DNA of 64,000 nt from Candidatus Thermoflexus sinensis (GCA_016842045.1 JAEVEY010000140.1:23242-87241), one strand, 5' to 3'; shown: positions 7,109 to 26,311, counted from the stretch's first letter. Made by a program: numbers and translations. Notes: a model not told the origin generated them from the sequence alone.

Positions 7109-8137
7109 CTACGGATAGATAAGTACCTTTAGGGCTTCATAGGCCCGCATGGCCTGATAGCCCCGGGAGGTTTCCTCCAGGGGCAGGCGATGGGTGATCA
7201 GGCGCTCCACCGGCAGGCCTTCCGCGAGAAGGCGTAAGGCTTCCTGCATATCCGGTGGTCCCGCCGAGTAGCTGGGGATCACCCGGATCTCGCGGAAATA
7301 CAGGGTGTAAACGTCGACCGGCCAGCGGGCCTCCGGTGGCGTTGGGGTGAACAGCAGGAGCGTCCCTCCGGAGGCCACCAGGGACCATCCCAGTTCGATG
7401 GCCTCCACAGATCCCGGGCCCACCACCACGAGATCGGCGCCCAGGCCCTCGCTCTCCGCGTGGATTCGCTCCACGGCCTCGAAGGCCGGCACGGGGATCA
7501 GGCCCATCTCCGATCCGACCTCAAGGCGCGCCGGGATCCGATCGATCCCCCACACCCGCTCGGCCCCCCAGCGCAGCGCCACCAGCCCGTGGAGCAATCC
7601 CATCACCCCCAGCCCGATCACCGCCACCCGATCCCCCTCCCGCAACCCCGCCCGCCGCAGCGCCTTCACCACCGTGGCCAGGGGCTCCGTGAACGCCGCG
7701 GCCTCATCATTCACGTGAGGGGGGATGAGCAGGAGATCCCGCTCCACCACCGGTGGGGGAACGATCGCATACGTGCTCAACCCGCCGGGGATCAGGCGGG
7801 TGGCCCGCCAGGTCGGGCAATGGACGTAATCGCCTCGCTGACAAAACCGACAGGAGCCGCATGGCGCGTGATGATGGATCACCACCCGCTCCCCACCCCG
7901 GAAGGAGGTCACCCCGGGACCAACCTCCACCACCTCCCCCACCAGCTCATGGCCGGGGGTGAAGGGAGCCTTTTTCGCCATATACCAGTCCATCAGCTCC
8001 CCCGGGCACAGGCCGCACACCCGGATCCGCACCAGTACCTCCCCGCGCTGGAGCGGACGGAGGGCCACTTCCTCCACCTGCAGGTCGTCCCGGCTCCGAT
8101 AGAGGAGCGCCCTCGTTCGTTCCACCACCGATACCAC
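7109..8137 (-). CDS. Zinc-dependent medium-chain alcohol/polyol dehydrogenase
   Basis: CGLC, GHELVGEV, structural-zinc CGSCRFCQRG...C, Rossmann VIGLGVMG. Confidence 0.9.
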   Translation of the reverse strand: MVSVVERTRALLYRSRDDLQVEEVALRPLQRGEVLVRIRVCGLCPGELMDWYMAKKAPFTPGHELVGEVVEVGPGVTSFRGGERVVIHHHAPCGSCRFCQRGDYVHCPTWRATRLIPGGLSTYAIVPPPVVERDLLLIPPHVNDEAAAFTEPLATVVKALRRAGLREGDRVAVIGLGVMGLLHGLVALRWGAERVWGIDRIPARLEVGSEMGLIPVPAFEAVERIHAESEGLGADLVVVGPGSVEAIELGWSLVASGGTLLLFTPTPPEARWPVDVYTLYFREIRVIPSYSAGPPDMQEALRLLAEGLPVERLITHRLPLEETSRGYQAMRAYEALKVLIYP

Positions 8138-8221
8138 CTCCTGGCCCTGGCAAGTGGATCAGAACATTAGGGGGGATCACCCGGAGAAATCCCAGCGGCC
8201 TGGCCTTCTATGAAGCTCAAA

Positions 8222-8266
8222 GCCGGGAGGGGCAGCCGCAGATTCGTCGCGGCTGCCCCTCCCGGC
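8222..8266 (-). terminator. Strong GC hairpin downstream of the PTS IIC gene (possible terminator or mRNA stabiliser)
   Basis: GCCGGGAGGGGCAGCCGC / GCGGCTGCCCCTCCCGGC 18 bp perfect stem. No clear U tract. Confidence 0.5.
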
Positions 8267-8288
8267 ATCTTACACCCTTACGCCTTCT

Positions 8289-9680
8289 TTACGCCTCCGC
8301 CGGGGCTCCAGCGGCCACCTCCCAGGCCTTCGGGTTCCGCTGGTAAAGGAAGATCAGAACGGCCAGGACGGCCAGCAGGATCAACAGCCCAATTACCCCC
8401 GCCAACCGCACGGCGCTTACGAAGACGAACGGCGGCCAGAGGAAGCCATCGGCAATGCTGGTGATCCGCACCGCACCCTCTGGCATCTGGAACCCGGAAG
8501 CCACCGCCGCCGAGGTGAAGAGATCCGCCATCCCGGTCGCGATATAGAAGCCCACCGCCAGCGTGAGGGTGCCCGCAAGAATCATTCGGAAGATGTTCCC
8601 CCGCATCAAAGGGGCGAACATCGCCACCACGAAGGGGATCACCGCAAGGTCTGCGAAGAGGATCACCCGGTTGCCGGGCAGGATAGCGCTGAGCAGGATC
8701 GCCACCGGCACCAGCACCAATGCGGTCGAGATAGCAGCCGGATGGCCGATTAGGATCGCTGAATCCAGCCCAATGTAGATCTCTCGACCGCCCGCCCGCC
8801 GCTGCATGAAGTCCCGGGCTGCCTCCGAGACCGGGATCAAGCCCTCCATCAGGATTTGCACCATCCGCGGCAGAAGGAGCATCACCGCCGCCAAGTTCAT
8901 CGCCGTCTTGAGAACCTTCACCACCACAGTCTGAACATCACCGGCGTTATAGAAACCCAGGATCCCGAGGATCAGACCGATGATCAGTCCCAGAATCACC
9001 GGTTCCCCCGCGACCCCCAGCCTCCGGCGGATGGCCTCCGGGTCTGCCTGCACATCCCGTAGACCCGGGATCCGATCGATGATCCAGTTCACCACAATCG
9101 CGATGGGCACTCCTGGAGCGGTGGTCAGATGAGGAATCGAAATCCCCGGGAGGCTGTAGAAGCGCTGAACTGCGGGAGCTGTCCAGTCAGCGAAAAAGAG
9201 CGCCAGCGCAGCGGCGATCGCTGCAGCCAGAAGGCCAAAGAGGAGATTTCCCGTGGCAGCCACGACGAGCGAGCCGATGAACGCGAAGTGCCAGTAGTTC
9301 CAGACATCAATGTCCAGGGTTTTGGTCAGACGGGTCACCAGCATCACGATGTTCACAAGCAGTGTGAGAGGGATCACCCACAGGCCGACCGCGGAGCCGA
9401 AAGCGATGGCCGCCGCCGAGGGCCAGCCTACGTCCACCACGTCCCGCTGGATGCCCGTGTTCTTCACCATCGCCTGGGCGACCTCGGAGAGGTTGGTCCA
9501 CATCAGGCCGATGACCAGGTTGATCCCAATGAAGGCAATGCCAATGGTCACACCGGCCCGAAACGCCCGCCCAGGCTGCGCCCCCAGGGCGACGGCAAAA
9601 AGGAAGATAATAATGGGCAATGCAACGGTGGCTCCCAGATTATCAATGATCGCCTTCAATGTGCTCAGGAAGACCTCCAT
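8289..9680 (-). CDS. PTS galactitol-family (Gat) EIIC permease
   Basis: DVGWPSAAAIAFG, TKTLDIDVWNYWHFAF and YIGLDSAILIGHP are GatC-family signatures. Confidence 0.92.
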   Translation of the reverse strand: MEVFLSTLKAIIDNLGATVALPIIIFLFAVALGAQPGRAFRAGVTIGIAFIGINLVIGLMWTNLSEVAQAMVKNTGIQRDVVDVGWPSAAAIAFGSAVGLWVIPLTLLVNIVMLVTRLTKTLDIDVWNYWHFAFIGSLVVAATGNLLFGLLAAAIAAALALFFADWTAPAVQRFYSLPGISIPHLTTAPGVPIAIVVNWIIDRIPGLRDVQADPEAIRRRLGVAGEPVILGLIIGLILGILGFYNAGDVQTVVVKVLKTAMNLAAVMLLLPRMVQILMEGLIPVSEAARDFMQRRAGGREIYIGLDSAILIGHPAAISTALVLVPVAILLSAILPGNRVILFADLAVIPFVVAMFAPLMRGNIFRMILAGTLTLAVGFYIATGMADLFTSAAVASGFQMPEGAVRITSIADGFLWPPFVFVSAVRLAGVIGLLILLAVLAVLIFLYQRNPKAWEVAAGAPAEA

Positions 9681-9793
9681 GGCTACCTCCTTTTACGTGG
9701 GATGGAAGAAACACGGCGTTCTTCTACTCAGACCACCAGAGGCAGTCCCCGGGGGTTTGCCTCTTCCCATCCACGCTTCATTCCTCCTCTCGA

Positions 9794-10084
9794 TTAGCGC
9801 TTCCGCAAGATATCCGCAATCTGATCCAGCACCTGATCCTTACCGATCCCCGTTAGGAAGGCCAGCGTTTGGATGACCGGGATCCCCAGGTCCTGAGGAA
9901 CGGGGGTAGTGGTCACCACCAGGTCAAAATCCTTGGCCAGCGCTGGGACCTCTGCCGCCTTGCATTGGCGAGTGACCACCGGGATGCCCCGTGCCGCCAA
10001 TCCCTCCTCGATCGCTTTTGCGACCACTGTGGAGGTCGCAATAGCCGTTCCACAGGCCACCAGCACCCGCTTCGGTTGAGTCAT
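9794..10084 (-). CDS. PTS galactitol-family EIIB
   Basis: VLVACGTAIATST phosphoacceptor Cys loop. GGAGG RBS before ATG 10084. Confidence 0.92.
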   Translation of the reverse strand: MTQPKRVLVACGTAIATSTVVAKAIEEGLAARGIPVVTRQCKAAEVPALAKDFDLVVTTTPVPQDLGIPVIQTLAFLTGIGKDQVLDQIADILRKR

Positions 10085-10213
10085 AGGCACCTCCCGACCG
10101 AATCATAGCTTCATGATGAGTCCCTGAATCCTGCGAAAAAGGCCTTCTCCTTGCAAACTCTCCGAAACGCAGAGAGAAAAAGCACTCCAGACCAGATGGG
10201 CATCCGGTCGAAG

Positions 10214-10705
10214 TTAGGGGAGCCCCAGACGCTCGATCAATTCCTCAGGCGAACTGGACTCGTAGACTCGTTGGACCCGTTCCGGATCCTGAAACAGCTG
10301 CGCCAGACGCCGTAACATCTCAATCTGTCCGTGGGGCTCATTCAGTGCCATCACGATTACCACCGAAGTCCATACGATTTCCTCCGGGTTCGCCATGTTC
10401 CGAAAGGCTACTGGGCGCTCCAGCGTGGCGATCGCCAGCGCAGGAACAATCACATGCTCTACATCGGCGTGTGGGATCGCCACGTGCAGATCACCGGCCA
10501 GCGGGAGGCCCGTCGGGTTCGTCCGCTCCCGTTCCAGGACCGCCTCTACGAACGAGGGCCGGACAAACCCTTCCTCCTCCAGGCGCGCGGCTAGATGCCG
10601 GATTACCTCCTCCGCGGAGGAAGCCTTCATCCGCACCATAATCAGACGCGGCGATACGACCACCTCTGGCGTCGCTGGAGGAGCTTCCCGACGTCCTTCA
10701 TCCAT
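10214..10705 (-). CDS. PTS EIIA (fructose/mannitol/galactitol class)
   Basis: LERERTNPTGL...VAIPHAD motif with the phospho-His. Confidence 0.92.
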   Translation of the reverse strand: MDEGRREAPPATPEVVVSPRLIMVRMKASSAEEVIRHLAARLEEEGFVRPSFVEAVLERERTNPTGLPLAGDLHVAIPHADVEHVIVPALAIATLERPVAFRNMANPEEIVWTSVVIVMALNEPHGQIEMLRRLAQLFQDPERVQRVYESSSPEELIERLGLP

Positions 10706-10715
10706 CGCTTCCCCC

Positions 10716-12017
10716 TTACCCCAGCAGGATCCCTGGCCGCTCCAGAGCGATGCGCAGATCCTCCAGGAACCGCGCCGCCTGGGCGCCGTCCACGATGCGA
10801 TGATCGGCCGTGAGCGTGAGGGTGGCCATCGAACGGACCTCCACTCGATCCCCTTCTCCGACGACGGGCCGCCTGGCCACCCGCCCGACGGCCAGGATGG
10901 CCGCCTGGGGCGGGTTCAGGATCGCGGTGAAGCGATCCACCCCATACATCCCCAGGTTCGAGATGGTGAAGGTCCCACCCTGCAGGTCCTCCGGCCGAAG
11001 CCGTCCTTCCCGCGCCCGGGCGGCTTTCTCCTCCAGCTCGCGGGCGATCTCCGTCAGGCCCTTTCGGTCCGCGGCGGGCACCACCGGCACCACCAGGCCC
11101 TCCGGTACTGCCACCGCCACCCCGATGTTCACATCCTCCCACTCCAGGATCTCCTCCCCCTCCAGGGTAGCGTTCAGGGCGGGGTGCCGCCGCAGGGCCC
11201 AGGCGCAGGCCCGGATCAGGAGGGCCGTCAGGGTCACCCGAACCCCGACCGCCCGCTCCGCCCAGGCGGAAAGATCCTCCACAACACCCAATGCCCGGTC
11301 CATCACCACGTCTATACTGACCGTGAATTGAGGCGCCTCCCGAACGCTTCGGGTCATCCGCTCCGCGATGGCTCGCCGCATCCCGGTAAGGGGCACACGT
11401 CGGCGCACGGCCATACGGGGCAGAGCTTCCACCTCCGCGATCCGCTGCATCCCCGCTGCGGCCCGCAACACATCCGCCGACTGGATCCGGCCTCCCGGGC
11501 CGGTCCCTTCCACTTTCCGCAGATCCACACTTAGCTCCCGGGCCAGCCGTCGAGCGGCCGGGACAGCCTTCACCTTTCCTTCGTAAGCTTCTCCCACCTC
11601 CTGTCGGGCCAGATACGCTTCCACATCGGCCTTCGTCACCCGTCCACCCGGGCCTGTCCCGGGCACGGCGGAAAGATCCAGGCCGTGGGCCTGGGCCAGC
11701 CGCTCGGCCAGCGGCGTCGCCCGTGGCGCAGCCGGGGAAGGGAGTGGGGATGGCGCTGGCGCCTCTGACCAGACCTCGCCGGGCAACAGGATATAAGCGA
11801 TCGGCTCTCCAATGGGCACCACCTCCCCGGGGCTTGCGCGGATCCCGATCAGGGTGCCGCTGGCTGGCGCCTCCACTTCCATCGCCACCTTATCCGTTTC
11901 CACCTCGAGGATGGCCTCGCCCTTCGCGACGGTCTCCCCTTCCCGCTTCAGCCAGCGAAGGATCTTCCCGCTCTCCTGTGCCATTTCAAATTTCGGCATG
12001 ATCACCGGCACCGGCAT
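10716..12017 (-). CDS. Dihydrolipoamide acyltransferase E2 of a 2-oxoacid/acetoin-type dehydrogenase complex
   Basis: Lipoyl domain (ETDKVAME), two E3/E1-binding repeats (GTGPGGRV/I), catalytic DHRIVDG. Confidence 0.93.
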   Translation of the reverse strand: MPVPVIMPKFEMAQESGKILRWLKREGETVAKGEAILEVETDKVAMEVEAPASGTLIGIRASPGEVVPIGEPIAYILLPGEVWSEAPAPSPLPSPAAPRATPLAERLAQAHGLDLSAVPGTGPGGRVTKADVEAYLARQEVGEAYEGKVKAVPAARRLARELSVDLRKVEGTGPGGRIQSADVLRAAAGMQRIAEVEALPRMAVRRRVPLTGMRRAIAERMTRSVREAPQFTVSIDVVMDRALGVVEDLSAWAERAVGVRVTLTALLIRACAWALRRHPALNATLEGEEILEWEDVNIGVAVAVPEGLVVPVVPAADRKGLTEIARELEEKAARAREGRLRPEDLQGGTFTISNLGMYGVDRFTAILNPPQAAILAVGRVARRPVVGEGDRVEVRSMATLTLTADHRIVDGAQAARFLEDLRIALERPGILLG

Positions 12018-12065
12018 CCCAACCCCCCGAGGTCGACGTTGGGGTTGATTGGCCCGTCCTCCCGG

Positions 12066-14123
12066 CTAAAGCTCCAGCCGTGCCAGCCGTCGAGCCGCCT
12101 CGACGATATCTTCCACCTGGGGCACGGCCGCGCGCTCCAGCCGGGGGTGATAGGGAATGGGAACATCCGCCCCGCCCAACCGAACGATGGGGGCCTCCAG
12201 ATAGGCGAAGGCTTCGCTTTGAGCGATATGGGCGGCCAGCTCCCCGCCGAAGCCGCCCAGGGTCGGCGCTTCATGCACGATCAACAGCTTCCCGGTCTTC
12301 TTCACGGAAGCGATCACGGTCTCCGCGTCGTAGGGCTTCAGGGTGCGCAGATCGATCACCTCCGCCTCGATCCCTTCTGCCGTTAGCCGCTCCGCTGCCT
12401 CCAGGGCGCGGAGCACCATCAGGGAGTAAGCCACGATCGTCAGGTGTCGACCGGCCCGCCGCACCACCGCGCGCCCCAGGGGCACCACATAGGGCGCCTC
12501 CGGCACCGGCCCGCGGGCCCGGTAGAGCAACTTGTGCTCCACGAAGATCACCGGGTTCTCATCCGCCAGCGCGGCCAGCAGCAACCCCTTGGCATCGTAA
12601 GGTGTGGCCGGCGCCACCACCTTTAACCCGGGCACATGCACGAACCACGCCTCCAGGCTCTCTGAATGCTGGGCCGCCGCGCCGGTCCCGGAGCCGCCGG
12701 GGAGCCGGATCACCAGGGGCACCCGGGCCTTCCCGCCGAACATGTAGCGCACCTTCGCCGCCTGGAGGACGGTTTGTTCCATCGCCAGAGTCACGAAATC
12801 CATGAACTGCATCTCCACGATGGGCCGCATCCCGGTCAGCGCTGCGCCCACCCCAGCTCCTACAATCGTGTTCTCGGAAATGGGCGTGTCCCGCACCCGC
12901 TCCGGCCCGAACCGTTCGATCAGCCCCTGGGTGACCCCGAAAGCGCCGCCATAGACGCCGATATCTTCCCCCATCAGGAAGACTCGCTCGTCGGCCGCCA
13001 TCGCCTGGGCCATCGCCTCCCGCAGCGCCTCCGCGTAAGACAGCTCCCGCGTCCCCGCAGGCGGCTCCACGGCCGTCTCCGGCCCAAAAGTCCGCTGGAT
13101 CCAGCGGGGCGGGATCGAGGGGTCCTCCACGTAGACGTCCTCGGTCAGCTGCGCCACCGCCGGCTCCGGATCTCCCTCAGCGGCCTGCAGGGCCTCTTCG
13201 ATCGCCTGCCGGGCCCGCGCCTCCAGCTCGGTCGCCTCGGCCTCGGAGAGCCAGCCCCTGGCGATCAACCAGCTCCGGAAGCGGGCGATGGGATCCCGGG
13301 CCATCCAGGCCTGCACTTCGTCTTTCGTGCGATAGACCTGACGGTCGCTCTTGGAGTGTCCCCTGTAGCGATAGGTAAGCGCTTCGATGAGCGTGGGGCC
13401 CTCTCCGCGCCGCGCCCGCTCCACCGCTGCCCGCACCGCCCGATAAACAGCCAGGACATCCATGCCATCCACGGTCTCCCCGGGGATCCCGTAAGCGGCC
13501 GCCCGATCTGCCACCCGGGGGACGGCCATCGCTTTCCGGATCGGCATGGACATGGCGTACTGGTTGTTCTCGCAAAGGAAGATCACCGGCAGCCGCCAGA
13601 TGGCGGCCATGTTCAGCCCTTCGTGGAAGTTCCCATGGTTAGCCGCCCCATCCCCGAAGAAGCACAGCACCACCCGATCCTGCCCCTGCAGACGGATGCT
13701 CAAGCCCGCGCCCACCGCGATCGGGATCCCGCCGGCGACGATCCCATTGGCGCCGAGGTTCCCGCGCTCCAGGTCCGCCAGGTGCATCGACCCGCCCCGA
13801 CCCCGGCACACGCCGGTTTCCTTCCCTAACAACTCCGCCAGCATCGCCCGGATGTCCTGCCCTTTGGCGATGGCGTGGCCGTGGCCTCGATGGGTCGAGG
13901 TGATGGAATCGTCCGGCCGGAGCGCAGCGATCGCTCCCACCGCCACGGCCTCCTGGCCGATGGAAAGATGCATCGTGCCGTGCATTTTCCCGGCCGCGTA
14001 AAGCTGTTCCACGGTCTCTTCGAAGGCCCGGATGAGATGCATCTGATAGAGCCAGTCCCGCAGACGCTCCGGGGGAAGATCGATCTCTGCCTCCAGGGCC
14101 GATATCGTCGGTGTCTCACGCAT
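12066..14123 (-). CDS. Fused E1 alpha-beta TPP-dependent dehydrogenase (acetoin/2-oxoacid dehydrogenase-like)
   Basis: Alpha half: [19 protein letters not shown] motif GDGA...ENNQY, GHSKSD. Beta half: GEDIG..GG, DTPISE, EMQFMDF, QHSES. Confidence 0.93.
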
Positions 14124-15072
14124 AGGCCATCGCTCCTTCCAGGGCTAACACGGCGGCAGCGGCCTCGGCGTCGGTCACCAGCACATCCACATAGCCGCCA
14201 CGAAGCGCTGCCCGGATGGCCGGTGCCTTCGCAACGCCGCCTGCCACAGCGATCACCGTGGGGATCCGGCGCAGGGCTTCCGGCTCCAGGCCCACCACCC
14301 GTCGGTTCAACGGATGATCCAGAAGGTTCCCCTCCGCATCCAGCGCCCGGGCCAGCACATCGCCCACCGCGCCGGCCGTCCGCAACGCTTCCAGCTCGGC
14401 CTCGGTGAGGTAACCTGCCCGCCGCAGGCTGGAAAGACGGGGATCCACCGAGCCGATCCCGATCAGGGCCACATGGACTTTGCGGGCTATCGCCAGCGTC
14501 TCCGCAATCGCGCGCTCGCGCTGCAGCGCCTGGGCGACCGCTTCGCTTTCCACCAGCAACGGGGCGTGCAGATGTCGGACCGGGGCCTCCAGCTTCTCCG
14601 CCAGCCAGCGGGCGAGCTCCGGCCCATCGATCATGGGATCGCCCGCTCCGAGGGCGCCGATGATCTGGATCACCTGCGCTCCTTTCACCGGGAGCTCCGG
14701 CATCGCCCGCACCACCTCGTAAACCGCCGTTCCCCAGCTGATCCCGATCCGAACGCCAGGGCGCAACCGCTCCTGCAAGGCACGGGCCCCCAGCTCCCCC
14801 AGGCGACGCAGGAGCAAACGGGAATCGGAGGGAGGATCAGCGAGGACACGGGCTTCCCGAAGAGGGAAGGCGCTCTGCAGGGCTTTCGCCAGCTGGGGAT
14901 CCGTTTTGAGGGGATGGCGAACCCGGATTTCCACCAGGCCGCGGGCGCGGGCTTCTTTGAGGTAGCGGGAAACCATCGAACGCGAGCACCCCAACCGGCG
15001 GGCGATCGCCGCCTGATCCAGGCCCTCCTCGTAATACCAGGACGCGATCTCGGCCAATCGCTCGTCATCCAT
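14116..15072 (-). CDS. SorC/LsrR/DeoR(Bacillus)-family sugar-phosphate-binding transcriptional regulator
   Basis: N-terminal HTH ([24 protein letters not shown]) plus sugar-binding domain ([24 protein letters not shown]...LVTD). Confidence 0.92.
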
Positions 15073-15114
15073 AGGGAGGTCGCAAATGTGAATAAAGAGT
15101 CAACTTCTTCAACG

Positions 15115-15143
15115 ATTGTAAGAGCAGGGGGGCTTACTGTCAA
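15115..15143 (-). promoter_or_regulatory. Sigma70-type promoter of the regulator-E1-E2-PTS operon
   Basis: Minus strand TTGACA-17 bp-TACAAT, about 40 bp upstream of the regulator start. Confidence 0.75.
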
Positions 15144-16534: not shown

Positions 16535-16825
16535 TCAGGCTGATGCGGTCGCCTGAACCGGACCGAAAGTTCGATGGAACTGCTGCATCAGGCGGGACTT
16601 GAGGCGGGCGGCGGTGTTCCTGTGGATCACCCCCTTGCGAGCCGCCCGGTCCAGCTCCCGATAAGCCTCCTGAATGGCCTTCCTCGCCGCTTCCAGGTCA
16701 GCCTGGGCAATAGCCTGACGGGCGTACTTCACAAAAGTGCGGACCCGTGTGCGAATCGCGCGGTTCCGTTGTCGTCGCCGTTCCGATTTACGCAGCTCTT
16801 TCAACGCGGATTTTGTGTTCGGCAA
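16535..16825 (-). CDS. rpsT: 30S ribosomal protein S20
   Basis: MPNTKSALKELRKSERRRQRNR, LDRAARKGVIHRNTAARLKSRL. TTG start with GGAGG RBS. Confidence 0.97.
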   Translation of the reverse strand: MPNTKSALKELRKSERRRQRNRAIRTRVRTFVKYARQAIAQADLEAARKAIQEAYRELDRAARKGVIHRNTAARLKSRLMQQFHRTFGPVQATASA

Positions 16826-16918
16826 GGATGCACCTCCTGGGCCTGGGATCTTCCGAAACGACCATATGGGTATTCTATCCGGGGTGCTGGACTTTCGTCA
16901 ACTGATCGGAGATCTGCC

Positions 16919-17009
16919 CGGGGCTTTTCCGTCCTCATACCGTTCGGGTCGAGCAGATGGCCTCACCTCCCTGGGTTCCCCCAAACCTCCATGGGAACGC
17001 TCAGATGAT
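16919..17009. mobile_element. Truncated, internally deleted copy of the CAGGG-ended MITE (family C)
   Basis: GGGCTTTTCCGTCCTCATACCGTTCGG ... ATGGGAACGCTCAGATGAT, cut off exactly where the TAGG MITE begins. Confidence 0.7.
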
Positions 17010-17151
17010 TAGGACTTACGCAGTTCGTTTCCCATGGGGGCAAGGATTTTTCTCCCCCCTCCCCACGGTCCTTTGGGCCGTGGGGAGGGGGGAGAAAGGG
17101 GGGTGGGGCCATTCCGTTCCACCTTTAGAGCTTTCAACTGCGTAACTCCTA
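17010..17151. mobile_element. MITE, TAGG-TIR family, subtype A
   Basis: TAGGACTTACGCAGTT ... AACTGCGTAACTCCTA, 142 bp. No flanking direct repeat. Confidence 0.87.
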
Positions 17152-17216
17152 AACGTATAATGTGAGGAGGGGGGTGGAAGGTGATGGAGATCGACCCATG
17201 AAGAGGAGCGCCAGGG

Positions 17217-18824
17217 ATGCTGACGGATTTTCGGGTTCGACAGCGAGATTATCTCCTGGAGATCACCCGGGCGATCACGGCGCAGCTGGATCTGGATGCG
17301 GTATTGCGGCTGGTCGTCGAGGCAGCGGCGGAGATGCTGGCCGGGCAGGTGGCATTTATCGCTCTGCGGGAAGAAGACGCCTTTGCCATCCGCGCTGCAT
17401 ACGGTTTGCCGGAAACCCGATGGGAGGAGCTGGATGCCCTGCTGGCCAAACTCCCCGTGTATCCGGAGGCCTGGGGGCGAGCGGAAGTGGAACGGGTGCT
17501 CACCCAGATCGCCCGCTGGCTTCGCGTGGAGGCCCAGCAGGCCGTGGCCCTTCCCCTGATGGTGGGAGAGGATCTTCTGGGCCTCCTGGTGGTTTTCCGC
17601 ACCTTTGGGACTGCGTTCACTTATGATGATCGACTGGTCCTGCGCGCCTTCGCCGATCAGGCCGCCATCGCGGTCCATAATGCCAAGCTATATCAGCAAC
17701 TGGCGACGGAGAAGCGACGGTTAGAAGCGATTATCGAGGCCACCGCCGATGGGGTGATCATCCTCGATCCTGCCCATCGGATCCAGGTCTTCAACCGGGC
17801 AATGGCCCGGTTGACGGGATGGTCCCCCTCCGAAGTCCTCGGCCGCCCTCACGATGAGGTGGTGATTCTCAACCCCCGCCGCTCTGGAATGACCCTGGCG
17901 GAGGCGGAGGCCGGGGGCTGGCCCCTGGCCGGGGATAAGCCGATCTATGTGGAGGGGGATCTGATCCGCCGCGATGGGGGACGGGTGGCGGTGGGGATCA
18001 CGTACTCCCCCCTGCTGGACCGCACGGGCCGTCTGGTGAACATCATCGGCGTGGTTCGGGATATGACGCGCATCCGCGAGGCCGAGGAGCTGAAATCCAC
18101 GTTCATCTCGATCATTTCCCATGAGCTCAAGACGCCTGTCTCGATCATCAAGGGATACGCCGGGACGTTGCGGCGGGAGGATGCCACCTGGGATGCCAGG
18201 ATGGTGCGACAGATCGCCGCGATCATTGAGGAGGAAGCGGATCGGTTGACCCAGCTGATCGATAATCTCCTGGATGCCTCCCGGTTGCAGGCGGGGGCGC
18301 TGGAATTGCAATTTGTGGAAGTGGCGCTGGACGAGCTGGCGGAACGGGTGGCGGATCGATTTCGTCCTCAGACGGACCGGCACTTCATTGTGGTGGATTT
18401 CCCCCGGGATTTCCCGCTGATTCAGGGCGATCCTCGCCGGCTGGAGCAGGTGCTGGCGAATCTGGTGAGCAACGCCATCAAGTATTCCCCTCAAGGAGGA
18501 ACCATCCGGATCTCCGGACGCGTGACGCCGCGGGAGGTGATCGTCACCGTCACCGATGAGGGGATTGGGATCCCGCCGGAAGAGCAGGAGCGGATCTTCG
18601 AGCGGTTCTATCGGGCCAGCGCGGCCCGGGCACGGCAGACCCCCGGGACCGGATTGGGGTTGTATCTGGCCCGGGCGATTGTGGAAGCCCATGGGGGGCG
18701 GATCTGGGTTGAGAGCACTCCGGGGCGCGGCTCCTCGTTCAGCTTCTCCATCCCGCGCCCTCGCGGATCCTCCGGGGGCGCGCCGGAGATGCGCCCATCG
18801 AAAGGGACAGATGCACAGGCATGA
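17217..18824 (+). CDS. Sensor histidine kinase (GAF-PAS-HisKA-HATPase)
   Basis: ADQAAIAVHNA (GAF), DGVIILD...FNRA (PAS), SHELKTP, NLVSNAIKYS, DEGIGI, GTGLGL. Confidence 0.93.
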   Translation: MLTDFRVRQRDYLLEITRAITAQLDLDAVLRLVVEAAAEMLAGQVAFIALREEDAFAIRAAYGLPETRWEELDALLAKLPVYPEAWGRAEVERVLTQIARWLRVEAQQAVALPLMVGEDLLGLLVVFRTFGTAFTYDDRLVLRAFADQAAIAVHNAKLYQQLATEKRRLEAIIEATADGVIILDPAHRIQVFNRAMARLTGWSPSEVLGRPHDEVVILNPRRSGMTLAEAEAGGWPLAGDKPIYVEGDLIRRDGGRVAVGITYSPLLDRTGRLVNIIGVVRDMTRIREAEELKSTFISIISHELKTPVSIIKGYAGTLRREDATWDARMVRQIAAIIEEEADRLTQLIDNLLDASRLQAGALELQFVEVALDELAERVADRFRPQTDRHFIVVDFPRDFPLIQGDPRRLEQVLANLVSNAIKYSPQGGTIRISGRVTPREVIVTVTDEGIGIPPEEQERIFERFYRASAARARQTPGTGLGLYLARAIVEAHGGRIWVESTPGRGSSFSFSIPRPRGSSGGAPEMRPSKGTDAQA

Positions 18825-19074
18825 AAAGCCCGAGGAAGAATTTCCCCGGGCCGGGAAGGCCGCCGAAGGCGGCCCGCATCCCGAATAGAGTATCTGAAAA
18901 CTTCATATGACTGAGCCGGAAGACCGGCCCCCATCGGCGCTCGGAGACGCATCGGCCAGCGAAGGTTAAAGCAAACCCCCAGGGCTCCCTTCCTCCAGGG
19001 AACAGTGGTATAAGTGAATTGTAAAGTAACGCCGCCTCTTCCATCACCCTGGCTGGATCAGCGCGAAAGGCCTC

Positions 19075-22000
19075 ATGTCGTTCGTCCACCTGCACGTCCA
19101 CAGCGAATATTCTTTGCTGGATGGCCTCAGCCGACTCGATGACCTGGTCCGCCGGGCGGTCGAGATGGGCATGCCCGCGATCGCCCTGACGGATCACGGC
19201 GTCCTGTATGGGGCCGTCGCGTTTTATCAGAAAGCCCAGGAAGCGGGGATCCGCCCGATCCTGGGGATGGAAGCCTATCTGGCCCGCCGCACGATCCAGG
19301 ATCGGGAACCGGACGATCGAAGCCTGTATCACCTCACCCTCCTGGCGATGGATGAAACCGGATGGCGCAACCTGATCCGGCTGGCCACCATCGCTCAGTT
19401 AGAGGGTTTCTACTATAAGCCGCGCATCGACAAGGCCCTGCTGGAACGCCACGCAGAGGGGCTGATCGTTCTCTCCGGATGCCCCTCGGCGGAGATTCCC
19501 CGATTGCTGGCCCAGGGGCGGATGGAGGAAGCGGAGGCTGTTGCGGCCTGGTTCGCCGAACGTTTCCCTGGCCGCTTCTTCCTGGAACTGCAATCCCACC
19601 CAGGGGTCCCGGAGCTGGAGGACATCAATCGCGGCCTGCTGACGCTCTCCCGACGCCTGAACCTCCCCCTGGTGGCCACCAACGATGTCCATTATGTCCG
19701 CCCCGAGGACGCCGGGCTCCAGGATGTCCTGCTGTGTATCCAGACGGGGAAGCGCCTGAAAGAGCCCGGCCGGATGAAGATGAGCGATCAGACCTACTAC
19801 CTTCGCTCCCCGGAGGAGATGCGAGCGCTCTTCGCGGAGATCCCCGAAGCCCTGACCAGCACGCTTCGGATCGCGGAGATGTGTTCGCTGACCCTGGAGT
19901 TGGGCCGACATCGCCTGCCCCGGTTTGAACCCCCGCCGGGGTTCCCGGACCCCGCCGCGTATCTCCGCCATCTGGCCGAGGAAGGCTTCCGGGCGCGCTT
20001 CCCCCAGCCCAAACCGGGCTATCGGGAACGGCTGGACTATGAGCTGGAGATCATCCATCGGATGGGGTTTGACACCTACTTCCTGATTGTGTGGGACCTC
20101 ATCCGCTATGCGCGGGAGCGGGGGATCTGGTGGAATGTGCGGGGCTCCGGCGCGGGGAGCCTGGTCGCTTACTGCCTGGGGATCACCCGGGTGGATCCCA
20201 TTGAGCTGGACCTGATTTTCGAGCGTTTCCTGAACCCGGCCCGCGTGTCGATGCCGGATATCGACATCGATTTCCCGGACGACCGACGGGATGAGATGAT
20301 CCGTTATGCGGTAAGCCGTTACGGGGCCGATCGGGTGGCCCAGATCATCACCTTCGGAACGATGAAGGCCCGGGCGGCCGTCCGGGATGTCGGGCGGGCG
20401 CTGGATCTCCCGCTGCCGGAGGTAGATCGTGTGGCCCGGCTCATCCCGGCCATCCCCGGCAAGGATGTTTCGATCCGCGATCTCCTGGATCCCTCCAACG
20501 AGGAAGGGCGAGAGCTACGCCGCCTGTATGAGGAGAAAGATTACATCCGGGAATTGCTGGATCTGGCGATGCAGCTGGAGGGAACGGTGCGCCATGCCGG
20601 AACCCACGCCGCCGGCGTAGTGATCGCCGATCGACCGCTGGTGGACTATGTCCCGCTGCATCGGCCCACCGGCGTGAAAGGAAGTGCCCGGGAGGAAAAC
20701 GGCGAGGGGAACGGGGAAGGGGAGGCCCTCCTGCCGGTCACCCAGTTCGATATGGAGGCCCTGGAGGCGCTGGGGTTGCTCAAGATCGACTTCCTGGGCC
20801 TCTCCACCCTCACGGTGATGCGGGAGACCTGCGATCTGGTGGCCCGTCGGCATGGCGTCCGGCTGGATCTGGAGACCATCCCCACCGATGCGCCGGAGGC
20901 CTACGCGTTGCTAAGTCGAGGCGAGACCGTGGGGGTGTTCCAGGTGGAAGGTCGCGGGTTCAGCCGGATGATGCGGGATCTCAAGCCTCGCGCCTTCTCC
21001 CACGTGATGGATGCCTTAGCCCTTTATCGCCCGGGCCCGCTGGAGTATATCCCCAACTACATCCGTCGCATGCGCGGTCAGGAGCTCATCGAATACCGCC
21101 ACCCCCGATTGGAGCCGATCCTCCAGCGCACGATGGGCATCCTGGTCTATCAGGAGCAGATCATGCGGGTGGCCATCGACCTGGCAGGCTACACGCCCTC
21201 GGAGGCGGACGAGCTGCGCAAGGTGGTGGCCAAGAAGAAGGGCGAAGCTTTCCCGAAGCAGCGGGCGAAATTCCTTGAAGGCTGCGTCCGCAACGGCATC
21301 CCGCAGGAGATCGCCGAGGCGATCTGGGGGGACATCGAGTTCTTCGCCCGCTACGGCTTCAACGCCGCCCACGCCGCCTCTTACGCGGTGATCACCGTCC
21401 AGACCGCCTATCTGAAGGCGAAATACCCGGTGGAGTATCTGTGCGCCCTGATGACGGTGGACCGGGACAAGACCGAGAAGATCGGCCTTTATGTGGCGGA
21501 ATGCCGACGGCTGGGAATCCCGGTCCTGCCGCCCGATATCAACCGGAGCGAGGCGACGTTCACCATCGAGCGAACGCCGGACGGAAAAGAGGCCATCCGG
21601 TTCGGGCTGGCGGCGGTGAAGAATGTGGGGGAAGGGGCGGTCGCCCGCATCCTGGCCGCTCGTCAGGAGGGCGGCCCGTTCCGCGATCTGGACGATCTGG
21701 CCCGGCGGGTGGATCTGAGGGAGATCGGCCGGCGGGCCATGGAGTCGCTGATCAAGGCAGGGGCCCTGGGAGCCTTTGGGAACCGGGCGCAGCTCCTGGA
21801 GATCCTGGATCGCCTGATGGAGGCCAGCGCCCGCTACCATCGGGAGCGTCAGCAGGGGATGCTCAGCCTTTTCGAGCTGAGCGGCGTATCCGTGGAGGCG
21901 GCCTCGCTGATCGGTTCGCTCCCTGCGCTTCCAGAAGTCGAGGAAACCCAGATCCTGGAATGGGAGAAGGATCTCGTCGGCACATATCTCTCAGAGACCC

Positions 22001-23007
22001 CGCTCACCCGACAATGGCCTCTGTTGCAACAGCTCATCACGCATACCACCACGGATCTGAGCGAGGAGACGCATGGCCAGATCGTGAAGCTGGCGGGCAT
22101 CGTGCGGACGGTGCGAACCACCACCACACGGACCGGGGAGACGATGGCCTACGTGTCCATGGAGGATATCCACGGGACGGTGGAGGTGGTGATCTTCCCA
22201 CGGCTCTGGAAGCAAAAGGGGAACCTGGTGCGTCCGGAAGCGATCCTGATCGTCGTTGGCAGGGCGGAGGTGGGCGGACGTGAGCCCCGGGTCGTGGCGG
22301 AGGACCTGCGGGATCAGGACACGCTCGTGCGGCCGCTGGAGGATCTCCGGGAGGAAGAAGCCTTCGTTGCGCTGTGGGAGAATATGGAGGAACCGCCTTC
22401 CGCTGTGAGGACAGGCCTCGAGGACAGCAGTGCCCTGGCAGGCCCGGTCCTGGAGAAGCCCTCTTTGAGCACCCCGGACTCCATGAGCGGACGCGAAGGC
22501 GAGCCCCCAGGGGCCCCCGGCGAGGGTTTGCGATCCGGGAGACATGAGGAGACCACATCCCATCTCCCCGCTCCTTCAGCGGAAGCCTCATGGTCTCCGG
22601 AGAATTCGGGCTGGCATCCATCGCCGAACGTCGGGAAGGCGGCGCGCGCCCCGGATCTGGAAGGTTCGCCTTCGGATTCCCTCGGCCCGACGAAGGAGGA
22701 GAGGCCGTCCGGGGAACCGACGGCTCCCCCAGGGCCGAGAGCCGCCCCATCGCGCCATATTCTCGTTTATTTCTATCGGACCGAACAGTTAGAAGAGGAT
22801 CTCCGTCGTCTTCAGGAAGTTCATCGGGTGCTGACGGAGCGGCCGGGTCCGGATCCGTTTAGCGTGGTGGTGGTGTATCCGGATCGGCGGCAGGTTCGTC
22901 TGCGGTTTCCCCATCACGGCACCACGTATTCCCCAGAGTTGCTGGCCCGCCTGGAGAGCCTCCTGGGCCCGGATTCGGTGCGGGTTTTGCCCTTCCAATC
23001 GTCTTAG
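19075..23007 (+). CDS. dnaE: DNA polymerase III alpha subunit
   Basis: PHP domain HLHVHSEYSLLDG, GSGAGSLVAY, PDIDID, YGFNAAHA, HhH and OB-fold regions. Confidence 0.97.
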   Translation: MSFVHLHVHSEYSLLDGLSRLDDLVRRAVEMGMPAIALTDHGVLYGAVAFYQKAQEAGIRPILGMEAYLARRTIQDREPDDRSLYHLTLLAMDETGWRNLIRLATIAQLEGFYYKPRIDKALLERHAEGLIVLSGCPSAEIPRLLAQGRMEEAEAVAAWFAERFPGRFFLELQSHPGVPELEDINRGLLTLSRRLNLPLVATNDVHYVRPEDAGLQDVLLCIQTGKRLKEPGRMKMSDQTYYLRSPEEMRALFAEIPEALTSTLRIAEMCSLTLELGRHRLPRFEPPPGFPDPAAYLRHLAEEGFRARFPQPKPGYRERLDYELEIIHRMGFDTYFLIVWDLIRYARERGIWWNVRGSGAGSLVAYCLGITRVDPIELDLIFERFLNPARVSMPDIDIDFPDDRRDEMIRYAVSRYGADRVAQIITFGTMKARAAVRDVGRALDLPLPEVDRVARLIPAIPGKDVSIRDLLDPSNEEGRELRRLYEEKDYIRELLDLAMQLEGTVRHAGTHAAGVVIADRPLVDYVPLHRPTGVKGSAREENGEGNGEGEALLPVTQFDMEALEALGLLKIDFLGLSTLTVMRETCDLVARRHGVRLDLETIPTDAPEAYALLSRGETVGVFQVEGRGFSRMMRDLKPRAFSHVMDALALYRPGPLEYIPNYIRRMRGQELIEYRHPRLEPILQRTMGILVYQEQIMRVAIDLAGYTPSEADELRKVVAKKKGEAFPKQRAKFLEGCVRNGIPQEIAEAIWGDIEFFARYGFNAAHAASYAVITVQTAYLKAKYPVEYLCALMTVDRDKTEKIGLYVAECRRLGIPVLPPDINRSEATFTIERTPDGKEAIRFGLAAVKNVGEGAVARILAARQEGGPFRDLDDLARRVDLREIGRRAMESLIKAGALGAFGNRAQLLEILDRLMEASARYHRERQQGMLSLFELSGVSVEAASLIGSLPALPEVEETQILEWEKDLVGTYLSETPLTRQWPLLQQLITHTTTDLSEETHGQIVKLAGIVRTVRTTTTRTGETMAYVSMEDIHGTVEVVIFPRLWKQKGNLVRPEAILIVVGRAEVGGREPRVVAEDLRDQDTLVRPLEDLREEEAFVALWENMEEPPSAVRTGLEDSSALAGPVLEKPSLSTPDSMSGREGEPPGAPGEGLRSGRHEETTSHLPAPSAEASWSPENSGWHPSPNVGKAARAPDLEGSPSDSLGPTKEERPSGEPTAPPGPRAAPSRHILVYFYRTEQLEEDLRRLQEVHRVLTERPGPDPFSVVVVYPDRRQVRLRFPHHGTTYSPELLARLESLLGPDSVRVLPFQSS

Positions 23008-23114
23008 TCAGGGAAGGTGGAGCGGGGCTACGGCAATACCGTGCCCCGTTCCACCGGTGGCTCCCCTCTTCCACGTTGAGTTTCCTGCTGCAGAGAGACC
23101 CTCTGTTTTTCGGA

Positions 23115-23255
23115 TAGGACTTACGCAGTTCGTTTCCCATGGGGGCAAGGATTTTTCTCCCCCCTCCCCACGGCCCAAAGGGCGTGGGGAGGGGGGAGAA
23201 AGGGGGGTGGGGCCATTCCGTCCCACCTTTAGAGCTTTCAACTGCGTAACTCCTA
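23115..23255. mobile_element. MITE, TAGG-TIR family, subtype A
   Basis: Intact TIRs. 5 bp direct repeat TCGGA on both flanks. Confidence 0.9.
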
Positions 23256-23361
23256 TCGGATTCAGGATGCTTGGGTGCGATCCTATCGGTGCCCGCTTCC
23301 AAAATTCCCTGGACGCGAAGGAAGGTTAAGATAGAAGCAGGAAGATGAGGAGAGAGGAGCC

Positions 23362-23949
23362 ATGGGGTTCTGGCTGGCTCTCGCGGCGTATCTGGTGGGC
23401 TCGGTTCTCCCGGCGGAGCTTTTCGTGCGCTGGAAAACCGGTCGCAGCCCTCATGAGTTCGAAGATAACCCGGGCGGCGGAGGGGCATGGCGCCTGGCCG
23501 GGCCGGTGGCCGGTATCATCACCATCCTGTTTGACCTGGGGAAGGGCGCGGTTCCTACCTGGATCGCGCTCCGGTGGGGGCTCAGCCTGCCGGAGCTGAT
23601 CGCGGTCGCTGTCGCCCCGGTGATCGGCCATTGCTGGCCGTTTTATAAGGTCATCCGCCTGGAGCGAGGCGGGCGGGGTTTGGGGCCCGCAACAGGGGCG
23701 TTGTTTGCGCTGGCGTTTCGGGAGGTGATCCCCGCGTATGTGCTGGGCGCTCTGGCAGCCTATCGCTTCCGCTGGCTTCCCAGCGTGGGCATTGTTGCCT
23801 TCCCCCTTGGCTTAATCCTGATGCTCCTGTGGAAGGTCCCTCCAGAACGACTGGCGGTGGCTTTCGCGGTGATGCTGGTGGTGCTGGTTCGAAACGTGGG
23901 CCTGCTGTGGACGGTGGTTCAGACCCGGGGGAGGCGGTTGCCCCATTGA
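23362..23949 (+). CDS. plsY: Glycerol-3-phosphate acyltransferase PlsY-like
   Basis: YLVGS, NPGG, DLGKG, VIGHCWPFY, GGRG motifs in a polytopic protein. Confidence 0.8.
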   Translation: MGFWLALAAYLVGSVLPAELFVRWKTGRSPHEFEDNPGGGGAWRLAGPVAGIITILFDLGKGAVPTWIALRWGLSLPELIAVAVAPVIGHCWPFYKVIRLERGGRGLGPATGALFALAFREVIPAYVLGALAAYRFRWLPSVGIVAFPLGLILMLLWKVPPERLAVAFAVMLVVLVRNVGLLWTVVQTRGRRLPH

Positions 23950-23985
23950 AGGGTTGAGGATCCGATCGCCTGTTCAAAGCCAGAG

Positions 23986-24708
23986 ATGGAGCGCTCCTCG
24001 AAATTCGAACCACGGGTGGTCGCGTTGACGGGGGCGGGGATCTCCGCGGAAAGCGGGGTGCCGACCTTTCGAGGGCCCGATGGCCTCTGGGGGCGGTATC
24101 GCCCGGAGGAGCTGGCAACACCCGAGGCCTTCGCCCGTGATCCATCCCGGGTCTGGGAATGGTATGCATGGCGCCGGGAGGTGATCGCCCGTGCGGAGCC
24201 CAACCCCGCCCATCGGACGCTGGCCGAGATGGAAGCAGCCCTGCCAGGCTTCACCCTCATCACCCAGAATGTCGATGGCCTGCATCAACGGGCCGGCAGC
24301 CGCCGGGTCATCGAGTTGCACGGGAATCTCTGGCGTGTGCGGTGCGTCCGGGAAGGGCGAACATGGGAGGACCTTCGGGTTCCATTGCCGGAGATCCCGC
24401 CTCGCTGTCCCACCTGTGGGGCGCTGCTTCGCCCGGATGTGATCTGGTTCGGCGAGCCGCTTCCCCCCACGTTATGGCAACGTGCCGTGGAAGCGGCTCG
24501 GGAGGCGGAGATCTTCCTGGTGATCGGCACTTCGGGGATTGTGGAACCGGCGGCCAGCCTCCCCCGCCTGGCTCGAGCGCATGGGGCTTACCTGGTGGAG
24601 TTCAACATCGAGGACACCCCCCTAACACCTCTCATGGATGAGATCTGGCGCGGCCCGGTCGGCGAGACGCTGCCGCGCTGGTGGGCCCGCTTTCAAAAGA
24701 GGGCATAG
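23986..24708 (+). CDS. cobB: NAD-dependent protein deacylase (sirtuin, class III)
   Basis: [29 protein letters not shown], CxxC pairs, [13 protein letters not shown]. Confidence 0.93.
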
Positions 24709-24828
24709 AACGCCAGGGCAGGCCCGAGGACCCGCCTGGGCCCATCCCCTTTCGCTCTCCGCGGTCCCGGCGAAGCAAGGTCAACTGAGGTTGCCCTCTC
24801 TCTGTCTCTAAGATGGCGCTCATATGGT

Positions 24829-25015
24829 TAGGACTTACCAGTTCGTTTCCCATGGGGGCTTTGGGGGCGGAGCGGGGCGCCGAAGGCGCCCCGCTCCGCC
24901 CCCAAGGGATTTTTCTCCCCCCTCCCCACGGCCCAAAGGGCCGTGGGGAGGGGGGAGAAAGGGGGGGTGGGGCTATTCCGTTCCACCTTTAGAGCTTTCA
25001 ACTGCGTAACTCCTA
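24829..25015. mobile_element. MITE, TAGG-TIR family, subtype A carrying an extra GCC-GAA-GGC hairpin module
   Basis: Same ends and core as subtype A plus an inserted palindrome GGGGCGGAGCGGGGCGCC-GAA-GGCGCCCCGCTCCGCCCC. 187 bp. Confidence 0.87.
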
Positions 25016-25439
25016 TGGGAAACGCCAAGCTCTTCCTCCAGACAGGATGACCTCCCTCGTTCCGATAGCCCACCAGATAGGCCCCTCCCCTTGAAGCCCT
25101 CCGGATCGAAAGCGACCAGGCCCAATGAACCGTGAGACACCGATTTGCTCTCCGTACCTTTCAGGAGGGGCACCCCAGACGGCTGAATCAACTCAAAACC
25201 TCCAGAAGAGGAAAGATCTTCGATAGACCCCGTGAGAGAGCATGCCAGAGCAAGCATACCCTTCATTACTGTAACCCGCTTTTTACCGAATTCCAACCTT
25301 TATATGGACAATAAAGTCATCTGTCTCTATGTTCTCACGGATTTCGAGGCTGGGCAGGCCGCCGGGGGCTCGCTAAGCCACGAGGGCGACATAATTCCTT
25401 CAGATTTTCTGCTCTCCCACCTGAAAGGAGACCTGTGCG

Positions 25440-26237: not shown

Positions 26238-26311
26238 ACGATCGTGGAGCGACGTTTCAAAGCAGGAGGCACTCCCTTCCGCAACACTTTTGAACCTGAG
26301 AGGTCACTCGA

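Follow-up and report, generated by a model that had tools for sequence, protein, structure and literature searches.

Thiamine diphosphate (ThDP)-dependent E1 enzymes of the heterotetramer type and lipoyl-bearing E2 acyltransferases work together in 2-oxoacid and acetoin dehydrogenase complexes. Here we describe such an E1/E2 pair in a phosphotransferase system (PTS) operon of Candidatus Thermoflexus sinensis, at positions 7109 to 15143 on the minus strand of a 64,000-nucleotide stretch of DNA (GCA_016842045.1, JAEVEY010000140.1:23242-87241; hereafter the window, meaning the whole stretch analyzed), which is contig C148 of a 3.44-Mb assembly that is 94.5% complete. The host is a Thermoflexus-like member of the hot-spring Chloroflexota, and the window E1 is 92–93% identical to Thermoflexus proteins. 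We lean slightly toward a reading in which E1/E2 would cleave DXP (1-deoxy-D-xylulose 5-phosphate), or a closely similar pentulose 5-phosphate with a substituent at C1, into acetyl-CoA and glyceraldehyde 3-phosphate, with the Gat PTS supplying the substrate.

Acetoin dehydrogenase (AcoA/AcoB/AcoC/AcoL) has an E1 of the same broad branch and a lipoyl E2, and the proposed reaction would likewise be an acyloin cleavage, in which CH3-CO-CHOH-R is split into acetyl-CoA and R-CHO. However, R would be a phosphorylated diol instead of a methyl group, so that glyceraldehyde 3-phosphate would replace acetaldehyde as the product, and the present operon differs from the acetoin system in its fused E1, in having neither an E3 gene nor AcoR, and in its SorC-regulated setting among PTS or ATP-binding cassette (ABC) transporter genes. 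The pyruvate dehydrogenase (PDH) of the 'y' type (alphaproteobacterial and mitochondrial, TIGR03182) gives the best E1 profile and structure match and shares the lipoyl, peripheral subunit-binding (PSBD), and catalytic domains of E2, whereas the score of the window E1 is borderline, a paralogue in its own genome scores better, Lpd or LipA/B never lies beside it, and its regulatory and transport setting is a different one. Dxs is also a ThDP enzyme of the transketolase/E1 superfamily and handles the same pair of hydroxyethyl-ThDP and glyceraldehyde 3-phosphate, but the reaction proposed here would run in the opposite direction and depend on lipoamide, CoA, and NAD; formally, it would be DXP synthesis reversed, an oxidation replacing the carboxylation. 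An Escherichia coli PDH E1 mutant able to make DXP has been described (PMC3424233).

Three further systems resemble parts of the locus or of its relatives. In the methylthioadenosine (MTA)-isoprenoid shunt of Rhodospirillum rubrum (MtnP/MtnA, Rru_A1998, and Rru_A2000), DXP feeds the methylerythritol phosphate (MEP) pathway; relatives of the window operon join MtnK, MtnA, a RuBisCO-like protein (RLP), and a cupin with E1/E2 in a single operon, but these organisms lack the MEP pathway, and E1/E2 would act as a catabolic sink. The window locus holds only the E1/E2-PTS part of this arrangement, whereas the RLP and cupin are found in the related loci L017, L022, L023, and L024. The oxidoreductase DXR-II (DRL) of Brucella and Chloroflexus has homologues in sister operons that keep all of the diagnostic residues, although these are proposed to act after a polyol PTS and to convert MEP into DXP. 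Lastly, EIIA, EIIB, and EIIC belong to the families used in the Gat and Ula PTS pathways, but tagatose-phosphate kinase, aldolase, and UlaD-G are missing, and E1/E2 occupies the place of the C–C cleaving aldolase.

Our literature search turned up no account of an E1/E2 that cleaves DXP or of operons that link E1/E2 to a PTS, and to our knowledge, DXP has so far been described only as an intermediate of biosynthesis. The enzyme type itself is familiar; its class of substrate, the architecture of the operon, and three feeder routes that converge on one intermediate would be new.

The E1/E2 clade and its gene neighborhoods

The E1 gene (12066..14123, minus strand) encodes a fused alpha-beta protein of 685 amino acids with the domains PF00676, PF02779, and PF02780 (E1_dh, 325 bits; Transket_pyr, 161 bits; Transketolase_C, 134 bits). 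The GDG...NN thiamine-diphosphate motif, YRYRGHS, and the beta-subunit glutamate were read in its translation and are invariant in the E1 alignment, as expected of a heterotetramer-type ThDP E1. The E2 gene (10716..12017, minus strand) encodes a dihydrolipoyl acyltransferase of 433 amino acids with a lipoyl domain (ETDKV), two E3-binding stretches, and a catalytic domain (DHRIVDG). It therefore has the lipoyl-lysine, PSBD, and DHRxxDG signature of E2 acyltransferases; its scores lie under every NCBIfam equivalog cut-off.

Phylogenetic placement was based on 80 genome loci retrieved with an E1 alignment and on a tree built from the concatenated alpha and beta parts. The window E1 belonged to a clade of 48 tree rows (98% SH-aLRT), apart from its own genome's paralogues, all members of which are labelled Chloroflexota except for one metagenome-assembled genome (MAG) labelled Firmicutes. 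It divides into two subclades, one with fused subunits (29 rows, 100%) and one with split subunits (19 rows). The outgroup consisted of 30 loci from Acidobacteriota, Gemmatimonadota, archaea, and others, with approximately 40–45% identity.

Genes around E1/E2 differed between the two sets. Gene calling relied on a GC3-minus-GC2 caller in high-GC DNA, some calls of which are imperfect in lower-GC loci, so that the SorC counts are lower bounds: SorC was found near E1/E2 in at least 24 of the 54 clade loci and in none of the 30 outgroup loci. PTS genes were nearby in 13/54 clade loci and 0/30 outgroup loci, whereas the opposite pattern was seen for Lpd (0/54 and 10/30) and LipA/LipB (0/54 and 15/30). 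Neighbors of a sugar type occurred in 43 of the 54 clade loci and in none of the 30 in the outgroup, and DXP-linked neighbors in 15/54. Approached from the transporter side, four EIIC homologues (76–78% identity, selected for long contigs only) included three with E1/E2 in the same operon. The initial annotation was to be refuted if E1 homologues were not conserved beside PTS or sugar genes; by these counts, those of the clade are, and the proposal is not refuted on this point. Because SorC and PTS genes are frequent and Lpd and LipA/B are never adjacent, the clade is a module without E3 that is set in operons for sugar uptake. The adjacency of PTS genes to E1 is kept down to 57% E1 identity, in the fused and split subclades alike.

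Several contexts recur within the clade: SorC-E1-E2-Gat EIIABC(-HPr-EI), which includes the arrangement in the window (context A); an ABC transporter with an FGGY kinase, a GpsA-like dehydrogenase, and an RpiB-like isomerase (context B); RLP-cupin-Dak1-Dak2-isomerases (context C); GutM-Gut PTS-DRL oxidoreductase-HPr-EI (context D); and UlaD/HPS-like protein-bacterial microcompartment (BMC) shell-PanB-short-chain dehydrogenase/reductase (SDR)-ABC (context E). The smallest operons (L001, L082-L084, and L094) contain SorC, E1, E2, and PTS genes only, and they would constitute a complete route if the PTS product were itself the E1 substrate. A prior oxidation of a polyol phosphate, which the initial annotation had placed before the cleavage, is accordingly not required: these simplest relatives have no dehydrogenase, and the PTS substrate may already be a ketose.

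DXP in the operons of relatives

A first link to DXP was found in L023, a tight co-directional operon with the order SorC-E1-E2-cupin-ribose-type binding protein-ABC ATPase-permease-MtnK-MtnA-RLP. Its MtnK scores 475 bits on TIGR01767 (cut-off, 275), and its MtnA passes the equivalog cut-off. Judged by these assignments, the operon would encode every step from external methylthioribose to DXP, leaving E1/E2 as the sole enzyme without a task. MtnK-family kinases lie beside clade E1 genes in both L021 and L023; in L021, SorC comes after E1, and the MtnK gene runs on the other strand.

L017, L022, and L024 have the order RLP-cupin-Dak1-Dak2-isomerases-E1-E2. The cupin of this context matched PDB entry 3jzv (Rru_A2000) with E = 4e-49, and the RLP matched 3qfw with E = 1e-109. 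Rru_A2000 is a cupin-type 1-methylthioxylulose-5-phosphate (MTXu-5P) sulfurylase with methanethiol and DXP as products (PMC4958253), and Rru_A1998 is the DeepYkr RLP that supplies its substrate (PMC4958253; PMC6302742). In L019 and L020, a cupin gene stands directly upstream of a zinc-dependent dehydrogenase gene within an operon of the form SorC-E1-E2-ABC-FGGY-...-GpsA-like-XylB, with MtnA 8 kb upstream. An erythritol- or apiose-type reading of the RLP-Dak-RpiB context was also considered and was dropped in view of the RLP match to 3qfw and the cupin match to Rru_A2000.

A second link to DXP comes from the DRL oxidoreductase of context D, which gave 327 bits against the DXR-II of Brucella abortus (3upy). 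The homologue in L073 keeps G121, E174, F178, K191, K193, T229, H250, R320, Y322, and V351 (B. abortus numbering), the residues reported as diagnostic for DXR-II against inactive relatives (PMC3847144). All four of the DXR-II homologues followed up (selected for long contigs only) lie in operons with SorC, E1alpha, E1beta, E2, GutM, a Gut PTS of the glucitol type, HPr, and EI; the E1 proteins of these operons are 56–62% (alpha) and 67–69% (beta) identical to that of the window, and one of the four operons also has a Gat EIIC that is 78% identical to the window EIIC. XylB-like (xylulokinase-like) kinases recur in clade loci as well. The xylulokinase of E. coli phosphorylates deoxyxylulose. What the cupin, DXR-II, and the kinase have in common is DXP, which is the product of the first, the substrate or product of the second, and the product of the third.

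Genomes carrying the clade generally lack the MEP pathway: Dxr was absent from 37 of 38, Dxs from 22 of 22, and IspG from 28 of 29, and HMG-CoA reductase was present in 20 of 22. Dxr and IspG were present in a single genome, that of the MAG labelled Firmicutes. Because the clade genomes lack the MEP pathway and use mevalonate, DXP formed by the cupin or by DXR-II would have no known sink. Chloroflexus was reported, without explanation, to have an active DXR-II and yet to use mevalonate only (PMC3847144).

The initial annotation had proposed that a ketose phosphate or 1-deoxy-ketose phosphate is cleaved to glycolyl- or acetyl-CoA and an aldose phosphate. Its 1-deoxy form gains from the enzymes making or converting DXP in the operons of relatives and from the missing MEP pathway, and would be the form to retain; the glycolyl-CoA form with an ordinary ketose has a weak context, that of the UlaD-like loci.

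In the proposed route, the Gat PTS would import and phosphorylate a deoxy-pentulose, which in the case of deoxyxylulose would yield DXP directly; alternatively, the PTS would import a deoxy-pentitol that the zinc-dependent dehydrogenase would then oxidize. The thiamine diphosphate of E1 would add to the C2 carbonyl of the sugar phosphate, and the C2–C3 bond would break, releasing D-glyceraldehyde 3-phosphate and leaving hydroxyethyl-ThDP. The hydroxyethyl group would be oxidized onto the lipoyl arm of E2 and leave as acetyl-CoA, the dihydrolipoamide would be re-oxidized by the Lpd encoded on contig C10, and the DeoR/LsrR-like repressor would sense a phosphorylated intermediate. E1/E2 would then be a CoA- and NAD-dependent DXP dehydrogenase (acetyl-transferring), an assignment based only on gene context.

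Extended to the clade as a whole, the proposal is that the Chloroflexota-specific E1/E2 is a DXP dehydrogenase serving mevalonate users as a sink for overflow compounds of the MEP pathway and by-products of S-adenosylmethionine (SAM), with feeders converging on DXP; we consider the chances of this wider scheme to be evenly balanced. The overflow feeders would be deoxyxylulose, entering through the Gat PTS, and methylerythritol, entering through the Gut PTS and a reversed DXR-II, and the SAM by-products would be methylthioribose or 5-deoxyribose, processed by MtnK/MtnA-RLP-cupin.

If correct, this reading would add a sugar phosphate to the substrates of complexes of the 2-oxoacid and acetoin dehydrogenase type and would give DXP a catabolic fate. 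It would answer the puzzle of the active DXR-II in mevalonate-only Chloroflexus (PMC3847144), account for the RLP and cupin genes of the 'MTA-isoprenoid shunt' in bacteria without the MEP pathway, and suggest that Chloroflexota cross-feed on deoxyxylulose, methylerythritol, and methylthioribose from MEP-using neighbors. It would also provide concrete candidate carbon sources for T. hugenholtzii, a species without any known single growth substrate (PMC8129789).

Pyruvate and other candidate substrates

Several observations weigh against a DXP-cleaving role for the window pair. The window genome has no RLP and no DXR-II homologue, and its cupin gene is on a separate contig (C110); moreover, the Thermoflexus cupin is only distantly related to Rru_A2000 (58–62 bits). 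The DXP argument would therefore reach the window operon only by orthology, through an E1 that is 56–77% identical to the E1s of DXP-linked operons (compared with 39–52% for alpha and 52–56% for beta between the window E1 and its own-genome paralogues) and an EIIC that is 75–82% identical to EIICs of E1/E2 operons in other Chloroflexota. A comparison of clade-specific residues (T50, M51, H48, H78, R359, R572, and others) with human E1alpha, made without a dimer model, linked none of them to a substrate bearing a phosphate. That the PTS takes up free deoxyxylulose from the environment is a conjecture. The clade also includes contexts that do not point to DXP, namely, UlaD-like protein with PanB and a BMC shell, UlaD-like with UlaE-like protein (L097), and ABC transporter with FGGY kinase, GpsA-like protein, and RpiB, and it may act on several substrates. 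Of these loci, L097 (5814-15895) has the order EIIA-EIIB-EIIC-small protein-AP_endonuc_2 (UlaE-like)-OMPdecase (UlaD-like)-E1alpha-E1beta-E2, and a gene of the transaldolase family lies upstream; the set resembles the ascorbate pathway with E1/E2 in place of UlaF, and clade members may thus also handle non-deoxy pentulose phosphates. A further point of this kind is that the E1 alpha part passes TIGR03182 (PDH E1 alpha, subgroup y), narrowly, with 401.5 bits against a cut-off of 393.85.

That last score leads to the alternative that survives best, a sugar-responsive PDH. In this case, E1/E2 would oxidize pyruvate, including that derived from phosphoenolpyruvate by the PTS, in co-regulation with sugar uptake, and the sugar phosphate would be handled elsewhere. 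The E1 beta part passes PRK09212, the closest solved structures to the window E1 are PDH and branched-chain 2-oxoacid dehydrogenase (BCKDH) E1s, all catalytic motifs are as in normal E1/E2 proteins, and EI and HPr genes lie directly beside E1/E2 in L009 and L010. However, the window E1 is not its genome's best match to the PDH model: the genome contains four further E1 systems, which score 440.3 bits (C117+C99), 357 bits (C59), 338 bits (C147), and 207 bits (C84, x-type) on TIGR03182. Since one of these four is a better PDH match, the window pair is not the housekeeping PDH, and each of the 21 related genomes searched likewise had 3–11 matches to the E1 family model. In the related T. hugenholtzii JAD2, a pyruvate:ferredoxin oxidoreductase is annotated (PMC8129789), and the same paper assigns pyruvate oxidation to genes other than the PTS-adjacent E1/E2, on which it is silent. 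The clade also occurs in PTS-free ABC operons and in the MtnK-MtnA-RLP-cupin operon, which gives no pyruvate, and, unlike in the outgroup complexes, E3 and lipoylation genes are never adjacent; in the window genome, Lpd is on C10, LipB/LplA on C140, and LipA on C133, all away from the operon. The regulator, in addition, is of the DeoR/LsrR-like and not the CggR-like kind. A role in pyruvate oxidation thus appears unlikely to us. The paralogue on C147 (10386-12995) is a second fused E1alpha-beta protein, with 53% identity to that of the window and an N-terminal extension of approximately 200 amino acids without an assigned domain.

Next in rank, and with a slightly smaller chance, is the same type of cleavage acting on another sugar-derived carbonyl compound: an ordinary ketopentose or ketohexose phosphate would give glycolyl-CoA and an aldose phosphate in a transketolase-like but oxidative reaction, phospho-autoinducer-2 would be the substrate, or a phosphorylated 2-oxo sugar acid would be decarboxylated oxidatively. 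UlaD-like, UlaE-like, and AraD-like genes adjoin E1/E2 in L003, L097, and the BMC loci, GpsA-like, RpiB-like, and FGGY genes occur in ten loci, and the regulator resembles LsrR. Members of the Gat/Ula EIIC family transport polyols and ascorbate, and in the T. hugenholtzii paper, the PTS appears as an 'ascorbate' transporter that all Thermoflexus genomes share (PMC8129789). In the window genome, however, no UlaD-, UlaE-, or GpsA-like partner lies near the operon, cleavage of an L-pentulose phosphate should yield the wrong triose enantiomer, and those neighbors in the clade that name one defined metabolite all indicate DXP.

A classical acetoin or branched-chain 2-oxoacid dehydrogenase standing beside the PTS by chance is very improbable, despite database names of close homologues such as 'acetoin:DCPIP oxidoreductase' and '2-oxoisovalerate dehydrogenase E1' and the proteolytic habit of Thermoflexus (PMC8129789), given the PTS adjacency retained across both subclades as described above, the absence of acoL (E3) and an AcoR-type activator from the window flanks and related loci and of a butanediol dehydrogenase from the window flanks, and the existence of own-genome paralogues with x-type or BCKDH-like scores.

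Operon layout, transport, regulation, and the dehydrogenase

On the minus strand, the locus reads promoter, SorC-type regulator, fused E1alpha-beta, E2, EIIA, EIIB, Gat-class EIIC, hairpin, and zinc-dependent dehydrogenase, and all of these features were recovered as listed in the initial annotation, with the genes at its coordinates. Its statement that no aldolase, kinase, isomerase, or transketolase is present also holds for the flanks, where genes for peroxiredoxin, Lgt, DUF2207, a histidine kinase, and DnaE are unrelated to the operon. The SorC stop and E1 start overlap by 8 nt, and the remaining gaps between genes measure 10–123 nt. A sigma-70-like promoter, TTGACA-17-TACAAT (15115..15143, minus strand; 11/12 matches), precedes the regulator ATG by 43 nt. 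It is the single match in the 8.8 kb between 6800 and 15600, against a mean of 1.2 in shuffled sequence, a count that is not significant; only its position argues for the promoter. A scan of the region against Rfam gave no match.

The regulator gene (14116..15072, minus strand) encodes a SorC-family protein of 318 amino acids with an N-terminal helix-turn-helix and the sugar-phosphate-binding domain PF04198 (223 bits). It scored 218 bits on the DeoR model and 166 bits on the LsrR model, both under the cut-off, and is an equivalog of neither. Against solved structures, it matched Bacillus subtilis DeoR with 160 bits, LsrR with 137, SorC with 116, and CggR with 45. A CggR-like glycolytic regulator controlling PDH was rejected on the difference between the CggR and DeoR scores. 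The effectors of the nearest characterized relatives of the regulator are deoxy-pentose 5-phosphates.

The three PTS genes, all on the minus strand, encode an EIIA of the EIIA_2 type (10214..10705; 163 amino acids; PF00359, with the AIPH histidine motif), a GatB-like EIIB (9794..10090; 98 amino acids; PF02302, with the N-terminal VACGT cysteine), and an EIIC of the Gat family (8289..9680; 463 amino acids; PF03611). The EIIC scored 466.4 bits on the galactitol-specific model TIGR00827, under its cut-off of 542.2, and is assigned to the Gat family by PF03611 only. With the queries used, no EII complex other than this EIIABC set was found in the genome. Two of the three loci that were selected by EIIC and have E1/E2, L094 and L095 (Ornatilinea-type), encode EIICs identical to proteins named Thermanaerothrix daxensis and Ornatilinea apprima, respectively. 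The EI and HPr genes of the window genome are on C83, where the stretch 16588-26745 groups them with genes for a DhaM-like EIIA, a GlpD-like flavoprotein, an FGGY kinase, and DhaL/DhaK-like proteins; the general PTS proteins seem to belong to this dihydroxyacetone/glycerol locus.

Downstream of EIIC lies a strong hairpin with a perfect stem of 17–19 bp (8223..8265, minus strand), a weak T-tract, and a folding energy of about -47 to -50 kcal/mol (z = -5.8), which is a possible terminator or attenuator. It is followed by the gene for the zinc-dependent medium-chain dehydrogenase (7109..8137, minus strand; 342 amino acids; PF08240 and PF00107). The GTG at 8128, preceded by AGGAGG at a distance of 8 nt, is a more likely start than 8137, which would leave no spacing between the Shine-Dalgarno sequence and the start codon. 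The protein showed a weak match to GatD (75 bits).

In T. hugenholtzii, an orthologue of the dehydrogenase (81% identity) lies downstream of the operon, separated from EIIC by approximately 1.6 kb that includes a truncated cupin gene, and a second cupin gene follows the dehydrogenase. The window protein is also the best own-genome match (36% identity) to the zinc-dependent dehydrogenase of the L019/L020 operon. Because of the T. hugenholtzii orthologue and the L019/L020 match, membership of the dehydrogenase in the operon is probable, but not certain. The initial annotation had left this membership uncertain on account of the hairpin; the gene recurs in one distant operon type, at only 36% identity. 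The enzyme could oxidize a deoxy-pentitol phosphate or act on an aldehyde product. The zinc-dependent alcohol dehydrogenase of L003 is not orthologous to it.

The place after EIIC is occupied by an intact cupin gene in Thermoflexus sp. L006 (6770-7273), by a truncated one in T. hugenholtzii (L004:15734-16111), and by the bare hairpin in the window (8138-8288), a series that looks like stepwise loss within one genus. The cupins of L006 and L095 directly follow the Gat PTS genes and belong to the L023 subgroup, with 44–46% identity. The counterpart of the second T. hugenholtzii cupin gene (80% identical) is kept on contig C110 of the window genome, beside a paralogue of the dehydrogenase.

Outside the window, a protein of 127–150 amino acids is encoded after the Gat EIIC in five loci (L084:15527-15964, L003:3971-4423, L095:10467-10874, L096:10468-10854, and L097:10480-10863). 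It has a hydrophobic N-terminus, no Pfam match, and a pairwise identity of 20–48%; it is absent from the window and may be a PTS accessory protein.

In L003 (13530-19260), and also in L012, L016, L030, L031, and L046, loci from MAGs of Caldilineae and Anaerolineae, E1-E2 of the clade is followed by a gene for a UlaD/HPS-like protein of 364 amino acids. An SPU-type microcompartment, including the SPU6 type described for Chloroflexi, does not fit the BMC-linked loci, which have no DERA and no aldehyde dehydrogenase. Loci of the L003 type further contain three BMC-H/T shell genes with EutN, a PanB that passes its equivalog cut-off, and genes for an SDR and a sugar ABC transporter, and may represent an uncatalogued microcompartment locus.

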